DNA of 64,000 nt from an uncultured Erysipelotrichaceae bacterium (GTDB taxonomy: Bacteria; Bacillota_I; Bacilli_A; RF39; UBA660), in the NCBI GenBank assembly GCA_902780395.1, contig CACZFH010000002.1, positions 22,335-86,334 on the forward strand. Reading direction: 5' to 3'. Below, piece after piece: positions 9,622-57,603 of this stretch (its first letter is position 1; every line of letters starts with the position of its first letter). Under the pieces are notes generated by a model. It had not been told where the DNA came from. It saw only the letters and a list, made by a program, of their open reading frames with translations, and did no database searches. The translations under genes were made by a program, and so were the position numbers.

Positions 9622-9698
9622 GGCGAGTTGGTGAAGTGGCTTAACACACTGCCCTTTCACGGCAGCATTCACGGATTCGAATTCCGTACTCGTCACCA
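9622..9698 (+). tRNA. tRNA-Glu (anticodon UUC); its 3' end is the prophage attachment site
   Basis: GGCGAGTTGGTGAAGTGG..CTGCC-CTTTCAC-GGCAG..ACGGATTCGAATTCCGT-ACTCGTC-A-CCA. Confidence 0.85.
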
Positions 9699-39680: not shown

Positions 39681-40966
39681 GAGGTGTAATTATTAAACAA
39701 ATAATTTTAAATGTTACTACAGATAAAGTAACAATAAAACAAAATGCTAATCTTAATAAGGGAGAATACAATGTAACTAAATGTAAATTTCTCTTTGACA
39801 AAGATTATAATAATTTAGTGAAGAAAGCTGTGTTTTTTATAAATGATTCAGCTATTGAATTGAGTCTTGATTCAAATAATGAATGTTATGTTCCAAATGA
39901 ATGTTTAGTCTATAAAGGGAATATTGAAATTGGAGCATTCGGACTTATTTCTAATAACAATACTCTTGAAAAAGTATATTCTCCTGATCCTATATCGAAG
40001 GAAGTAATTGATGGTTCTTATACATCAAATACAACTAATACAGTTCCTCTTACTCCAACTGATAAGGAGCAAATAGAATCTGCAATTCAAACTAATGCAA
40101 ATAATATTGAGATTTTAGATGAAAATAAAGTTGATAAAGTTGAAGGATATGGTTTATCCAAAAATGATTTTACTGATACTCTTAAATCTAAACTTGATGG
40201 AATAGAAGCTTCAGCTGATGTAAATTTAATTGAAAGTATATCTGTAAATGGAACTGCTAGAACAATTACAAATAAAAATGTTGATATTATTGTTCCAACT
40301 AAAACAAGTGATTTAACAAATGATAGTGATTTTACTACTAATGATCATGTAGATAATGTTAAAGAATATTTAGAAGAAAAGATAGATGATAATACAGAAG
40401 CTATAGGTGATAATGCAGACGCAATTGATGAAATTAATAGTAATTTGTTAAATTATTCATTGATAAGTGAAACAGGAAATAAAATTCAATTATTGATGGA
40501 TACTTCTACATATAAAATAAAAGCTATTTTAAAAGATAAAAATAATAATACTATTGATACTTCTAATGAAATAGATTTACCAATGGAATCTGTTGTATTA
40601 AGTGTTACTTATAATAGTACAGATAAAGAATTAGTAATAACTCTTCAAAATGGATCTATTACTAGAGTTCCATTAACATCACTTATTTCGGGTCTTGTTA
40701 ATGTAGATACTTTGGAATCTACATTAGATGATTATGTTTTAGTTTCTGATTATAATGCAGCAATATCTAATTTGGAAACAGGTAAAGCTGATAAAAGCAC
40801 AACTTATACAAAAAATGAAGTTGATCAATTACTTATTGATGGTAATTATAATTTTGCTACTTTTGAATTAGATATTGATACAGGAGAATTATATTTGAGA
40901 AAAACAGATGATATGTTATTACAATTTAATATTGATGAAAATGGCTATTTGGAGGTGATTATTTAA
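39674..40966 (+). CDS. tail fibre / fibre-shaft protein
   Basis: ORF track; repetitive T/N/D-rich sequence. Start uncertain (GTG at 39674). Confidence 0.55.
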   Translation: MLGGVIIKQIILNVTTDKVTIKQNANLNKGEYNVTKCKFLFDKDYNNLVKKAVFFINDSAIELSLDSNNECYVPNECLVYKGNIEIGAFGLISNNNTLEKVYSPDPISKEVIDGSYTSNTTNTVPLTPTDKEQIESAIQTNANNIEILDENKVDKVEGYGLSKNDFTDTLKSKLDGIEASADVNLIESISVNGTARTITNKNVDIIVPTKTSDLTNDSDFTTNDHVDNVKEYLEEKIDDNTEAIGDNADAIDEINSNLLNYSLISETGNKIQLLMDTSTYKIKAILKDKNNNTIDTSNEIDLPMESVVLSVTYNSTDKELVITLQNGSITRVPLTSLISGLVNVDTLESTLDDYVLVSDYNAAISNLETGKADKSTTYTKNEVDQLLIDGNYNFATFELDIDTGELYLRKTDDMLLQFNIDENGYLEVII

Positions 40967-42915
40967 TGGCTATAAGAGAAAAAATAGGAAAAGTAAGTTA
41001 TGTTCATAAAGGAATATATAATTCATCAACTACTTATAACAGATTAGATGTTGTTAATTATAATGGATCTAGTTATGTATCAAGAACAGATAATAATACT
41101 AGTAGTCCAACAGATACAAGTGCATGGACTTTATTAGCATATTCACCAGTTAAGGGAATTGATTATTGGACCACACAAGAATTAGCTGATTTTGTACAAA
41201 AGACAGATCCTGAAACAATACCTAATAAGTTTACATTTACAACATTACCTGAAGCGAATATAGATCCTACTACAAATAATCAATTTACAAGGAAAAAATA
41301 TGTTGATGATAATGTTGCTAATATAAATGGATTCCTTCTTAATGGAACAAATCCAACAAAAATAAAAGATTTTTTAACTATGATGAGAGCTATGCTAGTT
41401 ACAGAAGGTGAATATGGTGTTGAATGGGATTTGTTCGCAACTAACAATAGTTCTAGCTGTACTAAATTGTATGATAATGTAGGATTAAGTATCACTCCTG
41501 GAACTGATTCAGTTGCAGAAGTAAACAATTATCCTAAAATATTTGAATCAATTGATTGTAATTATATCAATATTAATGGAGAAGATATTATTACAGCATT
41601 AAAAGGAATGTCTAATTATGGTGAGACTCCTTCAGAAATACAAGATGTTACAATTGATGGAGTAACTTATACTCCTGATGTTGGAACTGTACATTTTTCA
41701 AGATATGAAAAATATGGAATAAATAGTTCAGGGAAAATGGAATACTCTATGTCATGGATTCCAAGAGATGGATATACTCTTATTGATTTAGGAAAAGATA
41801 AAAATGGAAACTTTAAACCATATTTCATTATTGCAAAATATGTTGCAGGATATGATAATAATAACAAAGTAAGAAGTGCTGCAGGATTAGATCCTGCATG
41901 TCATTTAACAGGTTCTTCTGCAGGAGATGAAAATGCAGATCATAACATGAATTATACAAATTGTATTACTATTTTCCATACAAGAGGTAATTATTATTCT
42001 GCTGCTTTAATGTCAGAATATGGATTTATTATGAGAGACTTTTGGTTAAAGTTCGCCACAAGAAACACTCAATCAATTATGGCTGGAAATACATCAAACA
42101 ACTATCAATATGCTGTAGCGACTGCTGAAACAGGAGTTCATAGAGTTGTTTTAACAAATGCACAAGCTGCAAATATTGATTTATTAAGTTGTGTTTCTGT
42201 TGGTGATAGAGGCACTGCCACTAATAATGATCGTATTAATAAATATCTTCACAATATTTGTAAATCTGCTAGAGTAATAGCTAAAGAAACTGTAGATACA
42301 GATCATACAGCTTTAATTCTTGATCATGCTAACTTTAACACTACTTCTACTACTTATGTTTCTACAATGCACGAAAGAAGTGGTTATAGTAAGTTTGTAA
42401 GAGGTAGATATGGCTCTCCTATAAATAACACTAATGGAAAACATGGAATGGTGTTTAATGGTATAGAAATAGCTGTAGGAGGCTATGAAGTAGCAGGTAA
42501 TGCAATACTAGATATTATAGATAATACAGGAAAGAGAGAAGTTTATGTGACTAATAATGCAACAAAACTAAGTGGAACTGTTGCAACTATTAAAGATACA
42601 TATACAAAATCCTCTTTATCAATTCAACCAACTACATTAAACGCATGGAATTACATAACTAGATACGATTATGATCTTACTAATGGTTTAATGGTACCTA
42701 CAGAAGCAGGTCAAAGTGGATCAGGAACTTCTACAGGATTTGCAGATGGATTATATGTGGATAATGCAACAAGTGGTCAAAGGGAATGCTTGTGGCTCGG
42801 CTTTCTGAATGCTTATGGTCTTGCTGGCATGTCCTGTCTCCATACGCGTAGTGGCTTATCACTTGTTAATTGGTTTATCCTCGCTCGTCTCTCAACAAAT
42901 GGTGTAAGGGGGTGA
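40966..42915 (+). CDS. distal tail-fibre / receptor-binding protein; DGR target gene with a C-terminal variable region
   Basis: 649 aa. N-terminal fibre motif (YNRLDVVNYNGSSYVS...SAWTLLA). The C-terminal 38 codons are the VR copy of the downstream TR. Confidence 0.8.
   Translation: MAIREKIGKVSYVHKGIYNSSTTYNRLDVVNYNGSSYVSRTDNNTSSPTDTSAWTLLAYSPVKGIDYWTTQELADFVQKTDPETIPNKFTFTTLPEANIDPTTNNQFTRKKYVDDNVANINGFLLNGTNPTKIKDFLTMMRAMLVTEGEYGVEWDLFATNNSSSCTKLYDNVGLSITPGTDSVAEVNNYPKIFESIDCNYININGEDIITALKGMSNYGETPSEIQDVTIDGVTYTPDVGTVHFSRYEKYGINSSGKMEYSMSWIPRDGYTLIDLGKDKNGNFKPYFIIAKYVAGYDNNNKVRSAAGLDPACHLTGSSAGDENADHNMNYTNCITIFHTRGNYYSAALMSEYGFIMRDFWLKFATRNTQSIMAGNTSNNYQYAVATAETGVHRVVLTNAQAANIDLLSCVSVGDRGTATNNDRINKYLHNICKSARVIAKETVDTDHTALILDHANFNTTSTTYVSTMHERSGYSKFVRGRYGSPINNTNGKHGMVFNGIEIAVGGYEVAGNAILDIIDNTGKREVYVTNNATKLSGTVATIKDTYTKSSLSIQPTTLNAWNYITRYDYDLTNGLMVPTEAGQSGSGTSTGFADGLYVDNATSGQRECLWLGFLNAYGLAGMSCLHTRSGLSLVNWFILARLSTNGVRG
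42787..42900 (+). repeat. DGR variable region (VR)
   Basis: Aligns base-for-base with 42999-43112 (offset 212). 18 of the 23 mismatches are at positions where the TR has A. Confidence 0.9.
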
Positions 42916-42946
42916 ATTGGCCTTGCCAAGAGGGGACTCCCCCTTA
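42905..42946 (+). promoter_or_regulatory. GC-rich hairpin immediately 3' of the VR (candidate DGR target-recognition structure)
   Basis: taaggggg (42905-42912) pairs with ccccctta (42939-42946). Inner stem ttgg/ccaa. It spans the stop codon at 42913-42915. Confidence 0.55.
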
Positions 42947-42960
42947 ATTAATTAAAAGTA

Positions 42961-42969
42961 TGCTATAAT
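42961..42969 (+). promoter_or_regulatory. extended -10 promoter element TGcTATAAT upstream of the TR
   Basis: Exact TGnTATAAT match 30 nt before the TR start. Confidence 0.4.
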
Positions 42970-42998
42970 ATTAATGAGGACCCGAAAAAGAGGTTTTT

Positions 42999-43112
42999 TG
43001 CTTGTGGCTCGGCAATCTGAATAATAATGGTAATGCTGGCTTGTCCTGTCTCAATACGAATAATGGAATATCAAATGGTAATTGGAATATCCTCGCTCGT
43101 ACCTCAAGATAT
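42999..43112 (+). repeat. DGR template repeat (TR)
   Basis: Non-coding copy of the VR. Read in the VR frame it contains 11 AAT codons (CLWLGNLNNNGNAGLSCLNTNNGISNGNWNILARTS). Confidence 0.9.
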
Positions 43113-43326
43113 AATTAATATGAGTTAAATTTTCAGGGCCGTACCCAAGAAGGACATAGATGTAAATCTATCTCATTTAGCATAGCTAAAATTTAAGATT
43201 GAAACACCAACTTGAAAGTTCTACAAAGCACATCAAGAGAACGATTAGAGACGTTATATGTTAATGGATATAATGTGGGGTTAGTAGTAAAGTCCGAAAG
43301 CCCCTGATATCTTGAGAGGTTATATT

Positions 43327-44571
43327 ATGAAACGATATTTAAAGAATTTTGAGTTATCAGAGGAATTTGTTAGAAATTGTCTCTTTGATTGTTTAGGTGG
43401 CTCACCTACGAGAAAGTCAAGATGGAAAGAAAAAAAGACTATCTTTTTTCTTGCAGAATATTTGATGAAGTGGGAATATCTTCATAATTTTCAAGAGATA
43501 TCTAATATTAAAACTATTGCATATAGGCTATATAATTATGCTATTAATGATAAAGAAAAACTTTATCCTATAGTTAATTATGCAGCTCATGAAATGTTTT
43601 TAGAAATAAAAAATAGATCAATTAGATTAAAGAAGATTAATTATAACACTATAATTGATAAAGGATCTAAAAAAACACGTATAATCGGCTCTGCTAGTAT
43701 GAAACAACAATGTTATGATTATGTTGTTGTAAATGCTTTAAAAGATATGTTTAATGCCAAGATTGGTCATTATCAATGTGCCAGTCTTCCAAAAAAAGGC
43801 CAATTATTCGGAAAACAAGCAATTGAAACATGGATAAGAACTAATCCTAAAAAATGCAAGTGGTTTTTTAAGGCTGATGTTAAACAATTTTATCCAAGTG
43901 TTAATCATTCGATTGCTAAAAGATTATTAAAAAGAGATATTAAAAATAAAGATATACTTTATTTAGCATATACATTAATTGATACATACGGAGAAGTGGG
44001 ATTATGTATTGGTTCATATTTTTGTCAATATATGGCTAATTACATAATGTCTTATCCTTATCATTATGTTACTGAAATGTTATATCTAATAAGACGTGGA
44101 AAAAGGTATAATTTAATACATCATACCTTGTTTTATATGGACGATATAATTCTTATCGGAAGTAACAAAAAACACGTCAAAAAGGCTGCAATTGAGCTTG
44201 AAAAGTATCTTAGTAAATTCTTTTATTTAAAATTAAAATTGGATTATCAATTATTTCCTATAGATAGCAGGCCAATAGATATGATGGGATATAAAATATA
44301 TTCAGATCATACTACAATAAGAAAAAGAATATTTAAACCTGCAAATAGGTTATTTAGTAAAGTTAAAGGGAAAGATACAATGACATTAAAAGAAGCTCAA
44401 GCATTAGCCTCTTATTATGGTTATTTTAAATATACCAATAGTTATAAATATAAAAAGAAAGTAAAAATGAATCGCTCTATAAGAGTAGCGAAGGAGGTAA
44501 TATCAAATGAAGCAAAGAATAGCAGAGTTCCCAACACAACAGGGACCTTATCTATATCAACTGCAAAATGA
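43327..44571 (+). CDS. DGR reverse transcriptase
   Basis: YMDD active-site box (44134-44145). IGSYFCQ (44008-44028) sits where DGR RTs carry [ILV]GxxxSQ. ATG preceded by RBS gagagg. Adjacent to the TR. Confidence 0.88.
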   Translation: MKRYLKNFELSEEFVRNCLFDCLGGSPTRKSRWKEKKTIFFLAEYLMKWEYLHNFQEISNIKTIAYRLYNYAINDKEKLYPIVNYAAHEMFLEIKNRSIRLKKINYNTIIDKGSKKTRIIGSASMKQQCYDYVVVNALKDMFNAKIGHYQCASLPKKGQLFGKQAIETWIRTNPKKCKWFFKADVKQFYPSVNHSIAKRLLKRDIKNKDILYLAYTLIDTYGEVGLCIGSYFCQYMANYIMSYPYHYVTEMLYLIRRGKRYNLIHHTLFYMDDIILIGSNKKHVKKAAIELEKYLSKFFYLKLKLDYQLFPIDSRPIDMMGYKIYSDHTTIRKRIFKPANRLFSKVKGKDTMTLKEAQALASYYGYFKYTNSYKYKKKVKMNRSIRVAKEVISNEAKNSRVPNTTGTLSISTAK

Positions 44572-44821
44572 TGGACGTGCAGTTGTTTTTATTAGAGATT
44601 TTATTAGAGAAGATCATAGAGAATCTGAAGAAGGAACCGAAGAGGTTCTTTTTGTTTACAATGAAAATGAATTTATTGTAAATTCTGAAGAAATAACAGA
44701 AGAAATGATTGCAGCAAATCCATTAAGTTGGATTGATTATGATAATACAGAACCAACATTTGAAGAACAGGTAATAACTGCTTTAAATGACATTGGTGAG
44801 TTTTTAGGAGGGTTGCTATAA
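44507..44821 (+). CDS. acidic small phage protein (XkdW-like position)
   Basis: Strong RBS aaggagg before the ATG. Overlaps the RT 3' end by 65 nt in another frame. Confidence 0.55.
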   Translation: MKQRIAEFPTQQGPYLYQLQNDGRAVVFIRDFIREDHRESEEGTEEVLFVYNENEFIVNSEEITEEMIAANPLSWIDYDNTEPTFEEQVITALNDIGEFLGGLL

Positions 44822-45265: not shown

Positions 45266-45517
45266 ATGAATACTGAATACCTAATTGCATTAATATCTAT
45301 TGTAGTTGAAATTGTATTAGGATTTGTTGCAAAAAAACACCCTAAATTTAAAAATCAGTTAATACCTATCCAAAATATATTAGTTGGTGTAATAATTGCA
45401 ATAATAAAATATTTCATCACAAAAGATTTTAGTTTTGCAATAGCTGCAAGTGGATTAATTGCAGGTGGAACATATGATATAGTCCATAATTTAAGAAAAT
45501 TGAAGGGAGAAGAATAA
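45266..45517 (+). CDS. holin
   Basis: 83 aa with hydrophobic helices and a charged C-terminus (NLRKLKGEE). Immediately upstream of the endolysin. Confidence 0.7.
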   Translation: MNTEYLIALISIVVEIVLGFVAKKHPKFKNQLIPIQNILVGVIIAIIKYFITKDFSFAIAASGLIAGGTYDIVHNLRKLKGEE

Positions 45518-45518
45518 T

Positions 45519-46526
45519 ATGCAAAAATTTGGAATTGATTTATCACACCATAACGCAGGAATTAATTTTAATATTTTAAAAGATACTGGAGTAGAATTTG
45601 CTATTTTAAGGGCTGGTTATACTGGCTATGGAAATGGAGTAAGTAAAGCTAAAGACAACCAATTTGAAAATTTTTATAATCAATGTAAAGAAAAAGGAAT
45701 TGGTGTAGGAGCTTATTGGTTTACGTGTGCTAATTCATATGAAAAAGGTGTATCTGAAGCTAATTGGATTTATGAAAATTGTTTAAAAGGAAAGCAATTC
45801 GATTATCCTATATATATTGATGTTGAAGATGATACTGGTGAACGTCGTTGGTTAAGAAATGCAGGGAAAGAAGCAATTACTGATGGTATATGTGGCTTTT
45901 GTGAAAGACTTGAAGAACTTGGTTATTATGTAGGAATATACGCTAATCAAGATTGGTTTAATAATTGGATTAATCAAGAAAGAGTTAAACGATATGATAA
46001 ATGGTTAGCTTATTGGACAAAAAATAAACCTAGTAACTACCTTGCTAATACAATGTGGCAATTTGGTGGAGAAACAAATTATGTAAGAAGTCCATATATT
46101 GCAGGTCAATGTGTAGATCAAGATTATTGCTATTATGATTATCCAGAAATTATTAAAAAACTTGGATTTAATGGATATCCAAAAAATACTACAACTCAAA
46201 CACCTAGTTCACCTTCAAAACCAGTTAAGAAAAGTATAGACGAGATTGCTAGAGATGTTATTAATGGTAAGTATGGAAATTATCCAGAAAGAAAAACAAA
46301 TCTTGAAGCTGAGGGATATAATTATTCTGAAGTGCAAGGTAGAGTAAATGAAATATTAAATGGAACATCTTCTCCAACAGCCCAATATTATACAGTTGTA
46401 GCAGGTGATAATTTAACTAGAATAGCAAATAGATATAATACTACAGTCAATAATCTATTAAAGTTAAATCCTAATATAAAAAATAAAAATTTAATATATG
46501 TAGATCAAAAAGTAAGAGTTAAATAA
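45519..46526 (+). CDS. endolysin: GH25 muramidase + Cpl-7-like repeat + LysM
   Basis: FGIDLSHHN...YWF (GH25-type N-terminus). IARDVINGKYGNYPERKTNLEAEGYNYSEVQGRVNEIL (CW_7-like). YYTVVAGDNLTRIANRYNTTVNNLLKLN (LysM). Confidence 0.85.
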   Translation: MQKFGIDLSHHNAGINFNILKDTGVEFAILRAGYTGYGNGVSKAKDNQFENFYNQCKEKGIGVGAYWFTCANSYEKGVSEANWIYENCLKGKQFDYPIYIDVEDDTGERRWLRNAGKEAITDGICGFCERLEELGYYVGIYANQDWFNNWINQERVKRYDKWLAYWTKNKPSNYLANTMWQFGGETNYVRSPYIAGQCVDQDYCYYDYPEIIKKLGFNGYPKNTTTQTPSSPSKPVKKSIDEIARDVINGKYGNYPERKTNLEAEGYNYSEVQGRVNEILNGTSSPTAQYYTVVAGDNLTRIANRYNTTVNNLLKLNPNIKNKNLIYVDQKVRVK

Positions 46527-46530
46527 AAGA

Positions 46531-46561
46531 AGTTAGCCAATTAAGGCTAACTTTTTTTTTG
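46531..46561 (+). terminator. intrinsic terminator ending the late operon
   Basis: Stem agttagcc / loop aattaa / stem ggctaact, followed by a T9-10 run. Confidence 0.8.
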
Positions 46562-47521: not shown

Positions 47522-47541
47522 AATTCCGTACTCGTCACCAA
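47522..47541 (+). repeat. attR core (aattccgtactcgtcaccaa)
   Basis: Exact copy of 9680-9699. Confidence 0.9.
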
Positions 47542-48386: not shown

Positions 48387-48444
48387 TTGCACTTGCAAGA
48401 TTTTAACGAATGTGCTATAATACATGTACCTAGGGGGGAATTAT

Positions 48445-49884
48445 ATGAAAAAAATGGTAAAAAAAGGAATTGCTATATTAATAATATTATTAATAGTAAT
48501 TACAACATCTAATGTATATGCACAATCAACAATAACTGTTGATAAAAAAAATTATCTTTGGACTGAAAGTCAAAGACAAACAAAGTTCCACACAACAAAG
48601 GGTTATGCTTTCTGTATCACACCAAATAGAACTGGTCCATCTGAAGGAAAAACCATGACCTTTAAAAGCAAACAATCAAAAGGTGGAGTACTATATTTAT
48701 TTGATAAAACTGGATATAGTGATAATGAATATTTAGCAACTCAATTAGCTATTTGGCTTTATGATAGTAATCATATGTCTGATTTCTGGAAAAAGCATAG
48801 TAACTTAGATGTTGTGAAAAAAGCTAAAGCATTATCTGCCGAAGCTAGTAAAAATAGTAATTATACCCATACTCCAAGTGTAAAATTAACTACTAGTAGT
48901 AGTAATTTATCAATTACAAGTGATAATAAATATTATCGTTCTGGTGTAATCACAGTAACTATGGAAAATGCAACAGAAGCAAAGTTAACTTTAGAAGGTG
49001 CCCCAGCCGGAGCAACTATCGTAAATAGTAATTATTCTGCTATTTCAAAAGCTACTAATAATGCAAAAATATATGTTCAAATTCCAGAAGAAAAAGTTAC
49101 TGGTACAGTAAATTTCTCAATAAAAGCAGAAGCAAATGGTCAAGTTGCTGAAATTGAAAGATACACAACAGGAGATTCTGGTATTCAAGAATTAATCGTT
49201 TTAGTAAAAACAAATAAAGTAGTATCTTACTCAGCTAAATTAGCAGTAACACCAGTAAAAAGATCATGTGATTATGTAAATGGTAAATATTATAATAAAA
49301 AAGGTGAAGTTGTAGATAAAACAACTTATTCAATTGACTGTGAGCCTCATAATTGTGAACCAGTTGGAGATGTTTACTTTGGTAATAATGGAACCCAAGT
49401 AAGTTATGAAGACTTTGTAATTCAATGTAAAAAACCTATTTGTAAAAAAGTTGGAGATAAATATGTTGGTATAAATGGTACAGTTGTGACTCATGAAGTA
49501 TTTGTTACAGAATGTGGTTGTAAACCAATGGGCGATAAATATTTAGGAATTGATGGAACAGAAGTATCTTACGAAAACTATATAATTCAATGTAAAAAAC
49601 CTAAATGTGACATAATAGATAATATGTACTTTGGTATAAATGGTACTAGAGTAAGTGAAGCAGAATATACAAGTCAATGTGTACATAAATGCGAACTTTA
49701 TAATAACAATTATTATGGTTCAAATGGAACTATAGTAACTGAGGAAGAATATAAGAGTCAATGTGTTACTCCATATGTGCCAGTACCTGATACAGATACA
49801 TCAACTGAATTAATTTATCTAATTATGGGAGCGCTTTTATTAGGAACTTCACTAGGAGTTATTACTTATAAAAAACATGCATAA
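48445..49884 (+). CDS. surface protein with a thioester (TQxA) domain, six Cys-bracketed repeats and a C-terminal anchor
   Basis: Signal peptide. GYAFCITPN (Cys codon 48613-48615) and ATQLAIW (48739-48756). Repeats of C-x-GDxYxGxNGTxV-x6-8-QC. C-terminal VPDTD + hydrophobic helix + KKHA. Confidence 0.7.
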   Translation: MKKMVKKGIAILIILLIVITTSNVYAQSTITVDKKNYLWTESQRQTKFHTTKGYAFCITPNRTGPSEGKTMTFKSKQSKGGVLYLFDKTGYSDNEYLATQLAIWLYDSNHMSDFWKKHSNLDVVKKAKALSAEASKNSNYTHTPSVKLTTSSSNLSITSDNKYYRSGVITVTMENATEAKLTLEGAPAGATIVNSNYSAISKATNNAKIYVQIPEEKVTGTVNFSIKAEANGQVAEIERYTTGDSGIQELIVLVKTNKVVSYSAKLAVTPVKRSCDYVNGKYYNKKGEVVDKTTYSIDCEPHNCEPVGDVYFGNNGTQVSYEDFVIQCKKPICKKVGDKYVGINGTVVTHEVFVTECGCKPMGDKYLGIDGTEVSYENYIIQCKKPKCDIIDNMYFGINGTRVSEAEYTSQCVHKCELYNNNYYGSNGTIVTEEEYKSQCVTPYVPVPDTDTSTELIYLIMGALLLGTSLGVITYKKHA

Positions 49885-49965: not shown

Positions 49966-52900
49966 GTGGATGTAATGGCAAATATAATAAAAAAATATTA
50001 TAGTGATTTTGATGATATTACAGAATATTACAATTTTTTAGTCAATAAAACAAAAAATCATCAATATGTTGAAATCACAAATGAATGGTTAATTGATAAT
50101 TACTATCTAATAGTAGAACACAAAAATACCATACTCAATTCCAAGAAATTAATTAAAAAAAATAAAAAGATTATTCAAGAAAACTATTATTTTTTAAAGA
50201 GTATTATAAATAGTAAAAACTATAATATTAGTTTTAAATTTTTAGTAGAGGAATTAAAAAAATTTCAAAAAGATAATAAAAAGGCATTTTCTTATCAAGA
50301 ATTGTCTTCATTTATGTATATTATTATCATGATTTATACAGAAAGATTAAATGAATTATGCAAAGAAGAATATGCCAAACTTATTGATAAAGAAGATGTT
50401 GCAACAATTATTAGAAATCATGAAACACTAACAGTAGCAGATTTTTTACCAGCAAATTTTGATATTATTGGAAATTCCCATTATATATTTGAAATAAACA
50501 ATCAATTATATAGAACTGGTAGTAATAGTAATGAGTTATTTAAAGAATTAAATGAATATCTAAAAGAACATAGCGTAAGCTTAAAAGAATTGATTAATGA
50601 AGAATATCAAAAAAGAATTGAAAATAACTTATTAATATCAAATATTTTTAATGATTTAAAAGAATTCTTTGAATACTCAACAGAAGAGTTATTTGAAAAA
50701 GTTTCTAAAACAGAAAAACTATTATTAACAGATCCAGCTTATAAAGAAATGACCATCGAGTCAAAAATATCATACCGTAATAAACTAGTTTCTCTAGCTA
50801 AAAAACATCATCAACAAGAGTATGACTATTTGGAAAAAATATTTACTCCCAATAAACATATTGGATTTAAACTATTTAAAAATACCAATAATACCCTTAA
50901 AGTATTTATATATATATTAACTTTAGTATTAGCAACAAGTATAACAGCATTTTTTGCATCAAAGTATTTTATTAGACCAAGAGTATTAGGTTTTATTATA
51001 TTATTTATTCCTATTAGTCAATTAATTAGTCAAATCATGCATGAATTTATGGTGAAAGTAATACCACCAGCAGTTATACCTAAATTAGACTATTTAAAAG
51101 GAATACCTAAGGAATCTAAGACAATGGTAGTAATTCCAACAATCGTAGGAAATACCCAAAAAATAAAAGAAATGTTTGATGTCTTAGAATCATTCTATAT
51201 AGTAAATAAATCAGATAACTTATATTTTACTTTATTAGGTGATGTAAAAGCAGCTACTACCAAAGACACTGATTATGACGCTGAAATAACAGCTTATGGA
51301 GAAGAATATGCTAAGAAATTAAATGAAAAGTATAAAAAAGAGTTATTCTATTTTATTTATCGAAAAAGAATTTGGAATCCTAAAGAAAATAGTTTTCTAG
51401 GATATGAAAGAAAAAGAGGAGCATTAGTTCAATTCAATAAAATATTATTAGGTGAACCAGTTGATGAAGAAAAGTATTTTCAAATTAACATGCTTCATAA
51501 AAATAAACTAGGAATTAAATATGTTATTACCCTAGATACCGATACAAAATTAGTATTAAACTCTGCTCTAAATTTAGTAGGAGCCATGGCTCATCCAATG
51601 AATAAGCCTGTCTTAAATAGTTCAAGGACCAAAGTTATTAGTGGATATGGAATTATGCAACCAAGAGTAAGTGTAGATATTGAAGCTACTAATAAAAGTT
51701 TATATAGTCAGATATTTGCCGGAATTGGTGGATTTGATACCTATACAGCCGTAGTGCCAAATGTTTATCAAGACTCCTTTGGAGAGGGTAGCTTTGTTGG
51801 AAAAGGAATCTATGATTTAAAAGTATTTAATGAAATTTTAGCCAATACCTTTCCAGATAATTTAATACTATCTCATGACTTACTAGAAGGTAATTATCTA
51901 CGTTGTGGGTTTGTATCAGACATTGAAGTAATCGATGGCTTTCCATCTAAATTCTTAATAGATGTAACAAGACAACATAGATGGGCTAGAGGAGATACTC
52001 AAATTATAGGTTGGATTAAAAATAAAGTGCCTAATAAGAATAATAATAAAGTAAAAAATCCAATTAATTTACTAGGAAAATTTAAAATATTAGATAATAT
52101 CATAAGAATGTTCTTATATCCAATGTTACTAATAATGCTATTATTAGCATTTAGTGGTAGCTTAAAAAAATCATTATTCTGGATAACACTTGTTGTCTTA
52201 GAAATTGCTATATCCATTATTTTCTTCTTACGAAGTAATATGGTTCGTAAAGGAAAGAATATAAAAGCTGTATATTATAAAAACTTATATTATGGTGGAA
52301 AAAGTTTAATATTTAGATCATACATTGTTTTAGCAACAGTACCATATTATTCAAAACTATATATGGATGCTTTCTTTAGAACACTATATCGACTATTTAT
52401 TAGTCATAAGAATCTTTTAAATTGGATTACAGCTGAAGAAGTTGAAAAGACCGTAAATGGTAGCTTAAAAAATTATATTAAAAACTTCTCAATAAACTTT
52501 GTTTTTGCTGCTATTTTTATTGGTATTGGAATTATAAAAGCCAATCCATTAGCTTATTTAATAGCCCTTGTCTTTATCAGTGCACCTTTTGTATTATATT
52601 TTGTCAGTAGTGATATAGACCATACCCAAATTGAACTAAGTGATAAAAAAGTAGATAATATTAAAGAATTAGCTAAAAAAACATGGCAATATTTTGCTGA
52701 TGGCTTACAAGAAAAATATAATTATTTAATACCAGATAATTATCAAGATAATAGAGAAGAAAAAATTGATTTAAGAACTTCTCCTACAGCCATAGGTTAT
52801 TCTTTAACAAGTGTAGTATGTGCCGAAGAACTAGGCTTTATTGATAAAGAAAAAGCTATTGATTACTTAGGAAAAATATTAACTTCCATAGATTCACTAG

Positions 52901-55900
52901 AAAAATGGCATGGTCATTTATTTAACTGGTATAATATTGAAACTAAAAAAGTTATGCCTCCTTACTTTGTATCTTCAGTAGATTCAGGAAACTTAATTGC
53001 TTGTGTTATTATGATTCGTGAATTTTTAGCAAAACAAGGACAAGAACAATTAGTAAAACTATGTGATAAGTTAATAAAAAATGCTAATTTCAAAAAGCTA
53101 TATACTAAAAAAGATGTATTTAGTATTGGTTATGATGAAGATGAAGGAAAACTATCAACCTATAACTACAATAAGTTTGCCTCTGAATCTCGACTAACCA
53201 GTTATGTAGCAATTTGCTTAGGAGATGCTCCTAGTAAGCATTGGTTCTCTTTAGATAAATCATTAACAACTTATAAAGGAAGAAAAGGATTAATCTCATG
53301 GTCTGGTACTGCCTTTGAATACTTCATGCCATTACTATTTATGAGAAACTATCCAAATACTCTATTAGATGAATCTTATCATTTTGCTGTTTTCTGCCAA
53401 AAAGATTACATCAATAAAGTATCTCATAAATTACCATGGGGAATTTCAGAATCTGCTTATAATGAGCTAGATAATGCTCTTAACTATAAATATAAAGCCT
53501 TTTCAACCCCATATCTAAAAGCTAAAGAAGATAAAGAAAACAGAATTGTATTATCACCTTATTCTTCCATAATGGCTATTGAGTTATTCCCAGAAGAAGT
53601 CTATGAGAATTTAAAAAAATTCAAAGAGTTAGATATGTATGGCGAATATGGTTTCTATGAAGCCTATGACTATGATAATAGAGGAATTGTAAAAGCATAT
53701 TTTGCCCATCATGAAGGAATGAGTTTACTAGGTATTACAAACTATCTTAAAAAAGGTATTATGAAAGATTACTTCCATTCTAATGTTAATATCAGAACAT
53801 TTGAATTATTATTAAAAGAAAAAGTTCAAACAAAAACAAATATTGATATGAAAATGGCTAAGTATAAAAAATATAACTATAACAAAGAAAAAATTGAAAA
53901 TGATATCAGAGCCTTTGATTATATTTCATACTTACCAGAAATGTCAGTATTATCAAATAAAAAGTATTCGCTTATCATGAATGATCGAGGAAATAGTTTC
54001 TCTAGATATCGTACATTACAATTAAATCGTTATCGTAAAGTAACCGAACAAGATTATGGTATATTCTTATTTATTAAAGATATGAAGAATAATCATATTT
54101 GGAGTAATACCTATGCACCTATGAATGAAAAACCTGATAAATATGAAGTTGTGTTTGCTTCAGATAAGATTAAATTCTTAAGAAAAGATGAAGATATTTC
54201 TACTAAAACAGAAATAGTAGTTTGTAAAAATCATCATGCTGAAATTAGAAGAATAACCTTCAAGAATGAATCTGATATAGACAAAGAACTTGAATTAACC
54301 AGTTATACAGAACCAATTCTTTCAGAAAATATGGATGATGTAGGTCATAAAGTATTTAATAATATGTTTATTAAAACAGATTTTGACCCAAGAACAGACA
54401 GTTTAATTGCCAAAAGAAAAGGTCGTGGAGATAATAATGTTAATAGTTATATGGTAACTAGAATGATCATTGACAATCCATTAGAAAACTATTCTTATGA
54501 AACAGAACGTGTTAATTTTATAGGAAGAAATCACCAGTTAACAGATGCCAAGGCTCTATCAAGTGATTTAACCAATTTTGCTGGAGAAAACTTAGATCCT
54601 GTTTTATCACTTAGAAATAAAGTATTAGTACCTGCCAATGGTTCAATATCAGTATACTTACTAGTTGGTTTTGGTAGAAGTAGAGAGCAAATTGAAGAAA
54701 TTATAAATTACTATAACAATGCTTATGCCATTGAAAAAGCTTTCCGTATTTCAACTTTAATGAATGTTATTGATACAAAGAATATGAATATATCAGGAGA
54801 AAACATGAGGACATTCAATATCATGTTAAATTACTTGTATCAAACAACCAGAATATCTGTAAACGAAGAAAGAATGAACTTCTTAAGAAAGAATGCTTTA
54901 GGCCAAACTGGTTTATGGAAATTTGGAGTTAGTGGTGATCGCCCAATCATCACAGTAGATATCTATGATATTAGTGATATGAGCTTTATCCATGAAATTT
55001 TAAAAGCATTTGAATATTACAAGAATAAATCAATCTTTGTAGATATTATTATTATCAATAATGAAAGTAACGAATCAGCCAAATTAATCAAAAAAGAAAT
55101 TGATTCAGAAATGTATCGTATCTATACCCTAAATAGTTTCTATCATACTCCAGGAAGTATTACAGTCATTAATAAAGATGAAATAACAGATGAAGATAGA
55201 AGTTTATTGAATGTAGTTCCAAGACTTAGATTTGTTGTAGATAATCATATGAGTTTAAAAGAAGCTGTAGAAGAATTACAGAAAAACAATTCAATTAGTG
55301 ATTATCCAACATATCCAATTGAAAAGAATTTAGCAATAAGTAACACTGAAAAATTACAAATGGATAATGGTTATGGTGGATTTAAAAATAGTGGAAAAGA
55401 GTATGTTATTTATAATAAAAATACGCCTATGCCATGGTCTAACATAATTGCCAATAAAACCTTTGGTACAATTATTACCAACAATGGTTGTGGTTATACA
55501 TATGCCTATAATTCTAGTGAGTTTAAAATATCATCATGGACTAATGAAATGGTAATTAATGATAAGAGTGAAGGCTTTAAATTCAATGGTCAAAACTTTG
55601 ACCCAGAAAAGTGTATTCATGGCTTTGGATATTCTATTTTAGAAAGTGAAACAGAAGATTTTAAACATGAAATAACCGAATTTGTAGCAACCGAAGATAA
55701 TGTAAAAATATACTTCATGAAATTAAAAAATAAAAAAGCTAAGACTCCTGTTGACGTTGAATTCTGGATAAATCCTACATTTGGAAACTTTGAAGAAAAA
55801 ACAACAAGACACATCCTAACAGAGTTTATGGGTGATGATAACTACTTAAAGATGAGAAATGTCTATAGTATTAATTATGGTGATGTAAATGTCTTTATGT

Positions 55901-57603
55901 CTTCTTCAGAACATATTGATTATGCAGAATGTAATAAAATGTTAGTTAAAAACATTAAAGTAAAAGTAGATTTAGACAAAGAAGAAGAAAAAACATTGAT
56001 ATTTGTCTTAGGATGTAGCTTAAGCGATAAAGAAAATAAAGCACTTATTCAAAAATATACTAATATTGCCAACTGTAAAAAAGAATTAAAAGCAGTCAAA
56101 GATTACTGGAATAAAACATTAGGTACTATTCAAGTAAAAACACCAGATAATAGTTTTGATTATATGATAAATGGTTGGTATTTATACCAAACAATATCAG
56201 CTCGTATTCTTGCTAGATCAGGATTCTATCAAGTTAGTGGAGCTTTTGGTTTCCGTGATCAGTTGCAAGATGCAATGAATATTGTCCTAATAGAACCAGA
56301 ATTTACAAGACATCAAATCTTAAATAATGCTTCTCATCAATTTGAAGAAGGAGATGTATTACACTGGTGGCATGAGAAAAACCATTTTGGTTTACGTAGT
56401 CGTTATCAAGATGATTTCCTATGGTTAGTTTATGCAACTACTCATTATATAGAAACAACTTCCGATTATGATATCTTAAAAGAAAAAGTACCATATGTTG
56501 TAGGAGAAACATTAAGTGACTATGAAAATGAAAAAGGAATGGTATTCCATTATTCAGATAACAAAGACACTTTATTAGAACACTGCTTAAAATCATTAGA
56601 AAAATCAATGAAATCATTAGGAAGTCACAAAATACCACTTATGGGTGGAGGAGACTGGAATGATGGAATGAATCGTGTTGGTATTAAAGGAAAAGGAGAA
56701 AGTGTCTGGTTAGGTTTCTTCTTATACAATACTATTGATTTATTCACCAAAATGATGAAAAACTATGATAAGAATTTTGATACAGCTAGTTATATAAGTT
56801 TCAACGAAAAATTAAAAGAAAATCTTAACAAAAAGACATGGGACGGTTCTTATTATCTACGTGCATTCTTTGATAATGGAGACGTTATGGGAAGTCATGA
56901 AAATACTGAATGTAAAATTGACCTAATTTCTCAAAGTTTCTCAATTATCAGTGGAGTAGCACCAAAGGATAGAGTAGAAAAAATAATAACTTCTGTAGAA
57001 GAACAATTGGTAGATGATAAGAATAAGATTATTAAACTATTGACACCACCATTTTCAAAATCTTTAAATAATCCAGGTTATATTATGAATTATCCAAAAG
57101 GAATTCGTGAAAATGGAGGACAATATACTCATGCCGTATCATGGTATTTAATGGCTTTAATTAAAGCCGGTTATCATGATAGAGCTTATCGTTATTATCA
57201 AATGATAAATCCTGTAAATAGAACAAAAACAACCGCAGACGTAGATAAATATAAAGTCGAGCCATATGTAATTGCTGCTGATATTTATTCTTCAGATAAT
57301 TATCCAGGAAGAGGTGGTTGGACATGGTATACCGGTTCTGCAGGTTGGTTCTATAAAGTAGGAGTCCAAGAAATTTTAGGAATTAATAAGATAGGTAATA
57401 AATTAAAAATAAATCCAAAAATTCCAATTTCTTGGGAAGGCTATCGAGCAGTTTATCATTATCAGGATACAACTTATAATATTGAAGTAAGAAAAGAATC
57501 AAAAGACAAAGTAATAATAGATAAAAAAGAAATTATTTCTTCAACTATATTATTAGAAAATGATAAGAAAGAACACTTTGTTGAAATACATATTCACAAA
57601 TAA
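49966..57603 (+). CDS. cyclic beta-1,2-glucan synthase-like multidomain protein (membrane GT84-type transferase + GH94-type phosphorylase region)
   Basis: 2545 aa. ITLDTDTKL and QHRWARGD (51973-51984) transferase motifs flanked by TM helices. The C-terminal half is of the GH94/cellobiose-phosphorylase type (FGFRDQLQD, GGDWNDGMN, GGQYTHA). Start could be the ATG at 49975. Confidence 0.75.
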   Translation: MDVMANIIKKYYSDFDDITEYYNFLVNKTKNHQYVEITNEWLIDNYYLIVEHKNTILNSKKLIKKNKKIIQENYYFLKSIINSKNYNISFKFLVEELKKFQKDNKKAFSYQELSSFMYIIIMIYTERLNELCKEEYAKLIDKEDVATIIRNHETLTVADFLPANFDIIGNSHYIFEINNQLYRTGSNSNELFKELNEYLKEHSVSLKELINEEYQKRIENNLLISNIFNDLKEFFEYSTEELFEKVSKTEKLLLTDPAYKEMTIESKISYRNKLVSLAKKHHQQEYDYLEKIFTPNKHIGFKLFKNTNNTLKVFIYILTLVLATSITAFFASKYFIRPRVLGFIILFIPISQLISQIMHEFMVKVIPPAVIPKLDYLKGIPKESKTMVVIPTIVGNTQKIKEMFDVLESFYIVNKSDNLYFTLLGDVKAATTKDTDYDAEITAYGEEYAKKLNEKYKKELFYFIYRKRIWNPKENSFLGYERKRGALVQFNKILLGEPVDEEKYFQINMLHKNKLGIKYVITLDTDTKLVLNSALNLVGAMAHPMNKPVLNSSRTKVISGYGIMQPRVSVDIEATNKSLYSQIFAGIGGFDTYTAVVPNVYQDSFGEGSFVGKGIYDLKVFNEILANTFPDNLILSHDLLEGNYLRCGFVSDIEVIDGFPSKFLIDVTRQHRWARGDTQIIGWIKNKVPNKNNNKVKNPINLLGKFKILDNIIRMFLYPMLLIMLLLAFSGSLKKSLFWITLVVLEIAISIIFFLRSNMVRKGKNIKAVYYKNLYYGGKSLIFRSYIVLATVPYYSKLYMDAFFRTLYRLFISHKNLLNWITAEEVEKTVNGSLKNYIKNFSINFVFAAIFIGIGIIKANPLAYLIALVFISAPFVLYFVSSDIDHTQIELSDKKVDNIKELAKKTWQYFADGLQEKYNYLIPDNYQDNREEKIDLRTSPTAIGYSLTSVVCAEELGFIDKEKAIDYLGKILTSIDSLEKWHGHLFNWYNIETKKVMPPYFVSSVDSGNLIACVIMIREFLAKQGQEQLVKLCDKLIKNANFKKLYTKKDVFSIGYDEDEGKLSTYNYNKFASESRLTSYVAICLGDAPSKHWFSLDKSLTTYKGRKGLISWSGTAFEYFMPLLFMRNYPNTLLDESYHFAVFCQKDYINKVSHKLPWGISESAYNELDNALNYKYKAFSTPYLKAKEDKENRIVLSPYSSIMAIELFPEEVYENLKKFKELDMYGEYGFYEAYDYDNRGIVKAYFAHHEGMSLLGITNYLKKGIMKDYFHSNVNIRTFELLLKEKVQTKTNIDMKMAKYKKYNYNKEKIENDIRAFDYISYLPEMSVLSNKKYSLIMNDRGNSFSRYRTLQLNRYRKVTEQDYGIFLFIKDMKNNHIWSNTYAPMNEKPDKYEVVFASDKIKFLRKDEDISTKTEIVVCKNHHAEIRRITFKNESDIDKELELTSYTEPILSENMDDVGHKVFNNMFIKTDFDPRTDSLIAKRKGRGDNNVNSYMVTRMIIDNPLENYSYETERVNFIGRNHQLTDAKALSSDLTNFAGENLDPVLSLRNKVLVPANGSISVYLLVGFGRSREQIEEIINYYNNAYAIEKAFRISTLMNVIDTKNMNISGENMRTFNIMLNYLYQTTRISVNEERMNFLRKNALGQTGLWKFGVSGDRPIITVDIYDISDMSFIHEILKAFEYYKNKSIFVDIIIINNESNESAKLIKKEIDSEMYRIYTLNSFYHTPGSITVINKDEITDEDRSLLNVVPRLRFVVDNHMSLKEAVEELQKNNSISDYPTYPIEKNLAISNTEKLQMDNGYGGFKNSGKEYVIYNKNTPMPWSNIIANKTFGTIITNNGCGYTYAYNSSEFKISSWTNEMVINDKSEGFKFNGQNFDPEKCIHGFGYSILESETEDFKHEITEFVATEDNVKIYFMKLKNKKAKTPVDVEFWINPTFGNFEEKTTRHILTEFMGDDNYLKMRNVYSINYGDVNVFMSSSEHIDYAECNKMLVKNIKVKVDLDKEEEKTLIFVLGCSLSDKENKALIQKYTNIANCKKELKAVKDYWNKTLGTIQVKTPDNSFDYMINGWYLYQTISARILARSGFYQVSGAFGFRDQLQDAMNIVLIEPEFTRHQILNNASHQFEEGDVLHWWHEKNHFGLRSRYQDDFLWLVYATTHYIETTSDYDILKEKVPYVVGETLSDYENEKGMVFHYSDNKDTLLEHCLKSLEKSMKSLGSHKIPLMGGGDWNDGMNRVGIKGKGESVWLGFFLYNTIDLFTKMMKNYDKNFDTASYISFNEKLKENLNKKTWDGSYYLRAFFDNGDVMGSHENTECKIDLISQSFSIISGVAPKDRVEKIITSVEEQLVDDKNKIIKLLTPPFSKSLNNPGYIMNYPKGIRENGGQYTHAVSWYLMALIKAGYHDRAYRYYQMINPVNRTKTTADVDKYKVEPYVIAADIYSSDNYPGRGGWTWYTGSAGWFYKVGVQEILGINKIGNKLKINPKIPISWEGYRAVYHYQDTTYNIEVRKESKDKVIIDKKEIISSTILLENDKKEHFVEIHIHK

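Follow-up and report, generated by a model that had tools for sequence, protein, structure and literature searches.

The 64,000 nt stretch of DNA analysed here (the window), from an uncultured Erysipelotrichaceae bacterium, carries a diversity-generating retroelement (DGR) that, with a probability of about 95%, is functional or was so until very recently. It has the simplest layout, consisting of a target gene, a template repeat (TR) and the gene for a reverse transcriptase (RT), with no accessory gene, and is situated at the tail-module end of a 37.8 kb temperate phage integrated in a tRNA-Glu gene of a low-GC Firmicutes (Bacilli-type) host. The differences between TR and the variable repeat (VR) of the target gene are specific for adenines, the RT has its closest affinity to DGR enzymes, natural copies share an invariant TR and have VRs that vary at adenine sites, the target matches a known fold, and elements near the repeats are conserved and covary. 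A preliminary description, made from the letters of the window, had proposed a DGR that reprogrammes the tip of a tail fibre, and this interpretation is supported on each of the three points where it could have failed: the bias of the mismatches on realignment, the kind of RT, and the natural variation of VR.

The VR/TR repeat pair

VR and TR (coordinates of these and other features are given in Table 1) align without gaps and with 23 mismatches, of which 18 are at adenines of TR, two at T, two at G and one at C. Over the core of TR (42999–43101), 18 of the 29 adenines are mismatched compared to only two of the 74 other bases (Fisher p = 9.2e-11). The adenine bias is thus strong on realignment, and the counts of the preliminary description are all correct. 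Adenine-confined differences of this type are a defining feature of DGRs. When read in the VR frame, TR contains 11 AAT codons, nine of which are altered in the VR of the window, as previously described, and 26 of the 29 core adenines occupy codon positions 1 or 2. VR lies inside a coding target, while TR is noncoding, adjoins the RT gene and is located within an intergenic region of 411 nt; this arrangement, together with the enrichment in AAY codons, is also typical of DGRs.

Two details of the preliminary description needed adjustment. VR was said to be the last 38 codons of the fibre gene, and its C-terminal location is correct, but it is not literally last, as the codons for GVRG and a stop codon (42913–42915) come after it. 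The distance of 212 nt to TR holds as a start-to-start offset but not as a gap, the end of VR being 98 nt from the start of TR.

Templated homology stops at 42888 in VR and at 43100 in TR. The final 12 aligned bases form a diverged segment resembling the initiation of mutagenic homing (IMH/IMH*) sequences of DGRs, and three of the five non-A mismatches are found there; general divergence of VR and TR over these bases is the expectation for an asymmetric end of the IMH/IMH* type. Both this asymmetry and the inverted repeat downstream of VR, described below, are shared with DGRs. The non-A differences in the core are at 42829 (Leu to Met) and 42866 (Gly to Val).

A seed-and-extend scan of the whole 64 kb detected three imperfect direct repeats, and a bias to one base was present in the VR/TR pair only. 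The other two (49353–49766) are imperfect repeats of the tandem type, 64 and 129 nt in length, about 74–78% identical and with no base bias, and are carried by a host-side open reading frame (ORF; 48424–49884) just beyond the prophage. A BLAST search of TR against the window gave no additional copies and no remote VRs. A stricter scan, for repeats with mismatches tolerated at one base only, recovered nothing, because two non-A mismatches interrupt the run.

Natural variation of VR in related loci

Relatives of the RT (34–100% identity) were found at 58 loci in scans of genome and viral contig collections. In 45 of these, the upstream gene ends in a VR and a TR is situated some 200 nt downstream of it, directly ahead of the RT gene, with mismatches that are overwhelmingly at TR adenines; most of the remaining 13 loci are missing the upstream DNA. 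The repeat pair of one locus (L029, 3029–3136 and 3282–3389) is only VR/TR-like, having 14 mismatches, three of them at A of the downstream copy, and no adenine bias, while the bias is weaker in L033 (10 of 15) and L034 (6 of 9). All three are possibly decaying cassettes.

The 114 nt TR is 100% identical in five loci (four of them independent): the window, L012 and L013, with RTs 99.5–99.8% identical to that of the window (1–2 residues different), and L001 and L016, with RTs of 88% identity. Indels are present between the window and L012 or L013, and these were compared by BLAST and MAFFT. The VRs of the five loci differ pairwise at 9–23 sites, all of which are TR adenines except for 42829 and 42866, and across the set the variable sites include 26 of the 29 adenines and two of the 74 other bases. 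In every pairwise comparison the VR differences are significantly associated with TR adenines (Fisher p between 2e-13 and 4.5e-5), and the flanking sequence is 96% identical. An invariant TR accompanied by natural VR variation restricted to A sites is what is expected of a DGR.

The same picture is seen in the protein sequences. Twenty close relatives of the target were compared, comprising its own 90% cluster and a few other close relatives, and each of the 20 has a different VR. In the 649-aa target, variability is highest at 11 positions, which are exactly the 11 AAT-templated codons, with 6–11 residue types at each, and across 14 homologue clusters the residues at AAT-templated positions are all encodable by NNT. 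Population-level variation of VR, which the preliminary description could only anticipate, is therefore abundant among natural copies and, apart from the two changes private to the window, is confined to TR-adenine sites.

Length variants of VR occur in two close homologues of the target. In P0126 the VR is frameshifted and reads on through the element that follows it, and in P0123 it is shorter by one codon; these are either products of imperfect homing or assembly errors. Just upstream of VR, the region 42716–42767 has 12 differences from L012 within 52 nt. It was considered as a second VR and rejected, since the changes are mostly synonymous (the others being NA to SG and S to T) and are not templated by TR, and it represents ordinary allelic divergence.

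The reverse transcriptase

The RT gene and its YMDD box were both recovered at the place originally reported. Pfam assigns the protein to the generic RVT_1 family alone, but among all PDB sequences the closest solved RT is 8ub7_A (E = 9e-15), separated by 13 orders of magnitude in E from the next solved enzymes, the group II intron and retron RTs (E about 0.16–0.17). The residue numbering of 8ub7_A in the alignment (Q187, D215/D216) matches the cryo-EM description of the bRT-Avd-RNA complex (bioRxiv 10.1101/2023.10.23.563531), and 8ub7 is therefore taken to be the DGR RT of Bordetella phage BPP-1 (bRT). Equivalents of bRT residues R74, I181 and Q187 are kept in the RT of the window. By sequence match, the enzyme encoded next to TR is a DGR-type RT, as had been proposed.

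The hallmark motif IGxxxSQ is represented by IGSYFCQ (44008–44028, RT residues 228–234), in which I and Q are retained and S is replaced by C. Among 120 close RT homologues, this residue is Cys in 70, Ser in 47 and Ala in one, and the loci of homologues with a CQ motif still display A-mutagenesis. Annotated phage relatives of the RT are found in uncultured gut phages, Butyrivibrio phages Arawn and Idris, Lactobacillus phage LBR48, Faecalibacterium phage FP_Epona and crAss-like phages.

The target protein

Among the large genes of the tail module, the target comes last. It is preceded by a 2192-aa ORF in tape-measure position and a tail-collar fibre gene, and is followed by the RT gene, holins and a lysin with GH25, CW_7 and LysM domains. 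An AlphaFold2 (AF2) model of residues 121–649 was of high confidence (predicted local distance difference test (pLDDT) score 92.8, predicted template modelling (pTM) score 0.92). Its top PDB matches are three chains of TaqVP (5vf4; E = 1e-5 to 2.5e-4, probability 1.0), with Mtd a weak match at rank 14, and matches in BFVD include tail and tail-collar fibre proteins, the tail fibre of crAss-like phage cr55_1, an FGE-sulfatase-like protein and a TvpA-like protein. The C-type-lectin-like fold for which the preliminary description had suggested modelling the C-terminus is thus supported by matches of the model as a whole. Gene position and the fold matches of the model likewise support the identification of the protein as a tail fibre.

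Homologues have in common a conserved C-terminal region of about 520 aa, to which varied N-terminal modules, some of them collagen-like, are joined, and the C-terminal ~500 aa of the target accompanies the RT in essentially all related loci. Among close relatives, residues 1–120 (40966–41325) are far more variable than residues 121–600, which is consistent with modular exchange of an anchoring domain, unrelated to the DGR.

Conserved elements flanking VR and TR

A short box followed by two hairpins is found directly after VR (post-VR element, Table 1). The element is unique within the window and occurs in 29 distinct versions across the related loci. In these, 93% of cells are paired (53 compensatory), a level reached by none of 500 shuffles and far above that of slid controls. 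The element overlaps the target stop codon, and relatives read through it in another frame, so the constraint is on the nucleic acid. When folded alone, the post-VR region is not significantly stable (z = −1.4), and the element is supported by its conservation among loci. By analogy with BPP-1, it is a probable target-recognition hairpin or cruciform.

Between the target gene and TR is an extended −10 box that could serve as the promoter of the TR-RT unit. A TATAAT box, often TG-extended, is present at the same place before a conserved leader in relatives with RTs at least 58% identical. The box in the window was not called by a simple promoter scan, because it has no −35 match. Part of the leader that follows is predicted to pair with the 5′ part of the spacer between TR and the RT gene, and homologous duplexes with different sequences can be formed in relatives (GATATCGAAAAAAG/TTTTTTTCGATACC, TGTAACGCTAAA/TTCAGCGTTACA and GATCTATAGGC/GCCTATAGATC).

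The spacer itself is predicted to be a structured RNA, with an RNAalifold consensus of 42 pairs, 19 of them with compensatory change; no Rfam family matches it. Its 3′ end would pair with the 3′ flank of TR in a closing helix that covaries between subfamilies, the Lachnospiraceae-type relatives having TTTCTTGA/TCAAGAAA at the equivalent places. Duplex searches against shuffled controls gave noisy results in a sequence this rich in AT, with many non-significant z-scores, and the helices rest on covariation, not on energy. The consensus fold also pairs the RT Shine-Dalgarno region (43314–43319) and the bases preceding it with the constant 3′ end of TR (43091–43094 and 43103–43112), and translation of RT and folding of the template could therefore be mutually exclusive or coupled. 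The roles suggested for the RNA helices and the post-VR hairpins are drawn by analogy with BPP-1.

A model for mutagenic homing

Transcription would start just upstream of TR, at about 42975, probably from the extended −10 box, producing an RNA that carries the leader, the 114 nt TR, the 214 nt structured spacer and the RT message. In the predicted fold, the leader would pair with the 5′ part of the spacer, and the 3′ flank of TR with the 3′ end of the spacer beside the RT ribosome-binding site, leaving TR looped out as the template. RT would copy TR to cDNA with misincorporation opposite adenines, and the cDNA would replace VR at the 3′ end of the receptor-binding-protein gene. The bulged A at 43143 in the spacer is one speculative candidate for the priming site, if the cDNA is branched to a spacer nucleotide as in BPP-1. 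Homing would take its direction from the IMH-like segment at the 3′ end and from the conserved pair of hairpins that comes right after VR. As the 11 AAT codons supply almost all of the adenines, each could be changed to any NNT codon, giving 15 possible amino acids but no stop. In this way the ligand-binding face of a C-type-lectin-type domain, and hence receptor specificity, would be re-sorted, and we infer an effect on host range.

The RT presumably works without Avd. It is possible, if rather doubtful, that this represents a mechanistically distinct, Avd-less form of retrohoming, in which a longer RT acts alone, the closing helix ties the TR 3′ end to the RT ribosome-binding site and so couples translation to template folding, and a bipartite DNA signal (GGGGTGAAT box and two hairpins) replaces the GRNA-loop hairpin of BPP-1. 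In that case, the element would count as a minimal DGR, with one protein and defined cis elements.

Alternative explanations and accessory genes

Several features of the window weigh against a functional DGR. In the RT, the IGxxxSQ motif has Cys instead of the canonical Ser. Accessory genes are typical, although not universal, for DGRs, and here none was found: the 84 nt from the target stop codon to TR contain no ORF, nor do the wider VR-TR gaps of L023–L025, and neither the neighbours of the cassette nor the small prophage ORFs scanned matched Avd, HRDC or any other known accessory protein. The Avd requirement of the prototype must therefore be bypassed somehow. Absence of an accessory gene is compatible with membership of the DGRs, because target-TR-RT without one is a published layout (architecture A1), accounting for 29% of the set of Wu et al., in which an Avd-less lineage ('Lineage 3') was noted (PMC5758913).

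The remaining points concern recent activity. The changes at 42829 and 42866 are private to the window, occurring in none of the 20 relatives, and include the loss of an otherwise invariant Gly; fresh homing would erase them, so the window copy may not have homed recently. In addition, pairing of leader and spacer is weaker in the window than in relatives (9 of 11 positions when ungapped, or 10 bp with two bulges). Both would fit a genuine DGR by descent that is now silent in the window, its VR being a frozen product of past homing that drifts by ordinary mutation. However, the RT ORF is intact and only 1–2 residues removed from those of L012 and L013, whose VRs differ again, and TR, the IMH-like segment and the post-VR element are also intact, and identical or nearly so. 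DGR RTs make occasional non-adenine errors, which could explain the changes at 42829 and 42866 in an element that is still active. A silent copy is thus unlikely.

Avd could also have been replaced in this lineage by a new accessory protein, the candidate being a small acidic ORF that starts within the 3′ end of the RT gene (Table 1). An ORF of this type follows RT in all of the related loci, even where the RT is only 35% identical, with varying genes after it; across loci its isoelectric point (pI) is 4.1–4.5, and it overlaps the RT stop by 26–65 nt. Small acidic accessory proteins ('CH1') have been described, and only in Avd-less DGRs (Wu et al., PMC5758913), but these are 160–169 aa in length compared to 104 aa here. 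The family of the small acidic ORF (725 clusters) has no Pfam or PHROG match, and its predicted structure, a four-stranded sheet with one helix (pLDDT 88), is unlike the helical bundle of Avd and has no match among solved proteins in PDB. A confident family member (P0289, E = 2e-32) occurs in RT-less prophages, directly after and overlapping a 769-aa protein that is 35% identical (E = 3e-76) to target residues 157–649, a stretch that takes in the VR-equivalent region. The ORF thus accompanies the fibre gene, whether or not a DGR is present, making a role in the DGR unlikely and the replacement of Avd very unlikely. Possibly it acts in fibre assembly or as a tail-tip factor.

Members of this family always start inside the 3′ end of the preceding gene, which is RT in the DGR phages and the fibre homologue in RT-less prophages (L059, 4001–4444). 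The DGR-less target homologues (L059–L062, 1710–4019; 35% identity, including the VR-equivalent segment) are in prophages with CHAP/choline-binding lysins. As the receptor-binding-protein family exists with and without a DGR, the insertion point of TR-RT can be pinned between the fibre gene and the conserved downstream ORF. The TR-RT unit looks to have been inserted there, and the comparison suggests that it is gained or lost at this fixed point.

Derivation of the RT from another retroelement or defence system (group II intron, retron, abortive infection (Abi) or defence-associated RT (DRT)), with VR/TR an unrelated duplication of the fibre-gene 3′ end, is effectively refuted. The generic Pfam family, a sole NCBIfam match to a group II maturase model (TIGR04416) and weak matches to DRT- and retron-type RT models could be taken to favour it, but the maturase score is 46.9 bits against a cutoff of 300, the Rfam scan found neither group II intron RNA nor retron RNA, and the PADLOC defence and retron RT models (including DRT) gave generic matches of at most 39 bits compared to 214 bits for the phage RT PHROG. 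The RT thus belongs neither to the group II intron enzymes nor to the retron and defence RTs (DRT, Abi), with bRT the best solved relative by the margin given above, and an adenine bias (p = 9e-11) that recurs in 45 related loci cannot come from plain duplication. Recombination of fibre alleles with positive selection on receptor-binding residues, and no reverse transcription, would suit the ordinary allelic or mosaic variation of the N-terminal 120 residues and the short stretch just upstream of VR, but is hardly credible for VR itself, where the differences keep to TR adenines while TR never changes and the flanks are nearly identical, because recombination would not follow the adenines of a repeat that is separate and non-coding.

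The prophage

The proposal of a temperate phage of a low-GC Gram-positive host was borne out. The prophage is bounded by att repeats, one of them at the end of a tRNA-Glu gene, and carries genes for an integrase, an S24/HTH repressor and the GH25+CW_7+LysM lysin. The GC content is about 27%, and related loci are in metagenome-assembled genomes labelled Bacillales, Bacilli and Clostridia, with more distant ones in Lachnospiraceae isolates. The IMG/VR contigs L012 and L013 join window position ~47541 to ~9680 and are the excised or circular form.

The endolysin region (45494–46551) has no DNA-level match to L012 or L013, while both of its flanks are about 96% identical; by this comparison it would be a lysis module swapped between otherwise near-identical phages. 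Downstream of the prophage is a very large ORF (49966–57603, 2545 aa).

Table 1. Coordinates of the DGR, its candidate cis elements and the surrounding prophage in the window.
Feature	Position	Strand	Remarks
Prophage, 37.8 kb	9680–47541		Bounded by 20 nt direct repeat AATTCCGTACTCGTCACCAA
tRNA-Glu	9622–9698
att repeat AATTCCGTACTCGTCACCAA	9680–9699 and 47522–47541		First copy at 3′ end of tRNA-Glu
DGR target, 649-aa receptor-binding/tail-fibre-type protein	40966–42915	+	ORF; phrog_17147 and N-terminal tail-fibre PHROG
VR	42787–42900	+	Codons 608–645 of target; diversified positions within 42802–42889
VR 3′ constant GC-rich part TATCCTCGCTCGT	42876–42888	+	Common to VR and TR
VR IMH-like segment CTCTCAACAAAT	42889–42900	+	Differs from TR counterpart ACCTCAAGATAT
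Post-VR element	42908–42943	+	GGGGGTGAAT, then hairpin 1, then GAGGGG-ACT-CCCCC (hairpin 2)
Post-VR hairpin 1 stem	42917–42921 / 42925–42929	+	Stem sequence varies among loci
Post-VR hairpin 2 stem	42932–42935 / 42940–42943	+	Family form GAGGGG-NNN(N)-CCCC
Extended −10 box TGCTATAAT, putative TR-RT promoter	42961–42969	+	About 30 nt upstream of TR
Leader segment GGACCCGAAAA	42978–42988	+	Predicted partner: spacer 43130–43140 (TTTTCAGGGCC)
TR, 114 nt	42999–43112	+	Non-coding; 11 AAT codons in VR frame
TR IMH*-like 3′ end ACCTCAAGATAT	43101–43112	+
Structured spacer (Sp) RNA, 214 nt	43113–43326	+	Between TR and RT; several covarying hairpins
Bulged-A hairpin in spacer	43141–43155	+
GGGG...CCCC hairpin in spacer	43277–43304	+	Conserved interior UUAGUAG...CCGAAAG
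Spacer 3′ strand ATATCTTGAG	43307–43316	+	Predicted to pair with TR 3′ flank 43103–43112 CTCAAGATAT; abuts RT Shine-Dalgarno
RT Shine-Dalgarno GAGAGG	43314–43319	+
DGR reverse transcriptase, 414 aa	43327–44571	+	RVT_1 (Pfam); YMDD 44134–44145 (residues 270–273); phrog_1423, 214 bits
Small acidic ORF, 104 aa, pI 4.1	44507–44821	+	Begins 65 nt inside RT gene 3′ end

Comparison with known systems

DGRs have been catalogued in their tens of thousands, and among their most frequent carriers are phages of gut Firmicutes in which a tail protein is the target (PMC8144416). The element of the window belongs to this well-known, heavily catalogued kind, in a known accessory-free architecture, and adds little in principle; the most useful new details are the conserved post-VR element and the spacer RNA fold. 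Its practical value lies in an accessory-free cassette of about 1.8 kb from VR to the RT stop, with unusually clean natural evidence of activity. The candidate cis elements (promoter, leader:spacer duplex, closing helix at the ribosome-binding site and post-VR double hairpin) are well delimited, and dozens of diverged relatives supply covariation for them. The compact cassette and its delimited elements therefore make it a reasonable candidate for studying Avd-less DGR RTs and for smaller targeted-mutagenesis tools.

Gene order, strand, the lack of avd, HRDC, MSL and CH1, and the position of VR at the target C-terminus are as in the architecture A1 DGRs (Wu et al. 2018, PMC5758913). By description, the element also resembles viral DGR clades 1, 4 and 6 (Roux et al. 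2021, PMC8144416), which are gut-phage groups with tail targets, in its Firmicutes host, its occurrence in gut/rumen-type metagenomes and the C-Lec-type domain of VR. Relatives of the window RT are present in IMG/VR contigs.

TaqVP of Thermus aquaticus (PDB 5vf4), which the target model matches best in structure (E = 1e-5, probability 1.0), is only 11–12% identical to it, with a template modelling (TM) score of about 0.35–0.45 over a multi-domain alignment, and is a cellular protein, not a phage fibre. Tentaclins, the DGR-hypermutated receptor-binding proteins of gut-virome phages, have an N-terminal C-lec domain and Ig domains (PMC10743442). The target is alike in being a DGR-hypermutated phage receptor-binding protein with a C-lec domain, but its identification as a tentaclin was rejected, as the VR domain is C-terminal and no Ig domains were detected.

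The prototype, the mtd-avd-TR-brt DGR of Bordetella phage BPP-1, is likewise phage-borne and diversifies a C-terminal receptor-binding tip of the C-type-lectin type. Both elements have an AAY-rich TR, adenine-specific TR-to-VR differences, a constant, GC-rich 3′ segment that gives way to diverged IMH/IMH*-like sequence, and an inverted repeat just downstream of VR (PMC3240598), and the RT of BPP-1 is the closest solved relative. BPP-1 differs in having avd, which has no counterpart here, and an RT of 328 aa with an SQ motif, compared to 414 aa and CQ; the additional length of the window RT is made up of about 44 N-terminal and 26 C-terminal residues. The target-recognition hairpin or cruciform of BPP-1 is a single stem of 7–10 bp with a GRNA loop (PMC3240598). 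Its one hairpin, of 8 bp, contrasts with the GGGGTGAAT box and two hairpins with CTTT-type loops found here, and the post-VR element would therefore be a lineage-specific variant. In the RNA of BPP-1, the upstream region pairs with the spacer in the 'cPRT Stop' duplex, and the TR 3′ end pairs with the spacer in the template:primer duplex (bioRxiv 10.1101/2023.10.23.563531). The flanks of TR in the window are predicted to pair in the same two ways, upstream to spacer and TR 3′ end to spacer, but the partner of the TR flank is about 200 nt downstream, beside the RT ribosome-binding site, rather than about 50 nt as in BPP-1, so that the order of the duplexes along the spacer would be reversed.

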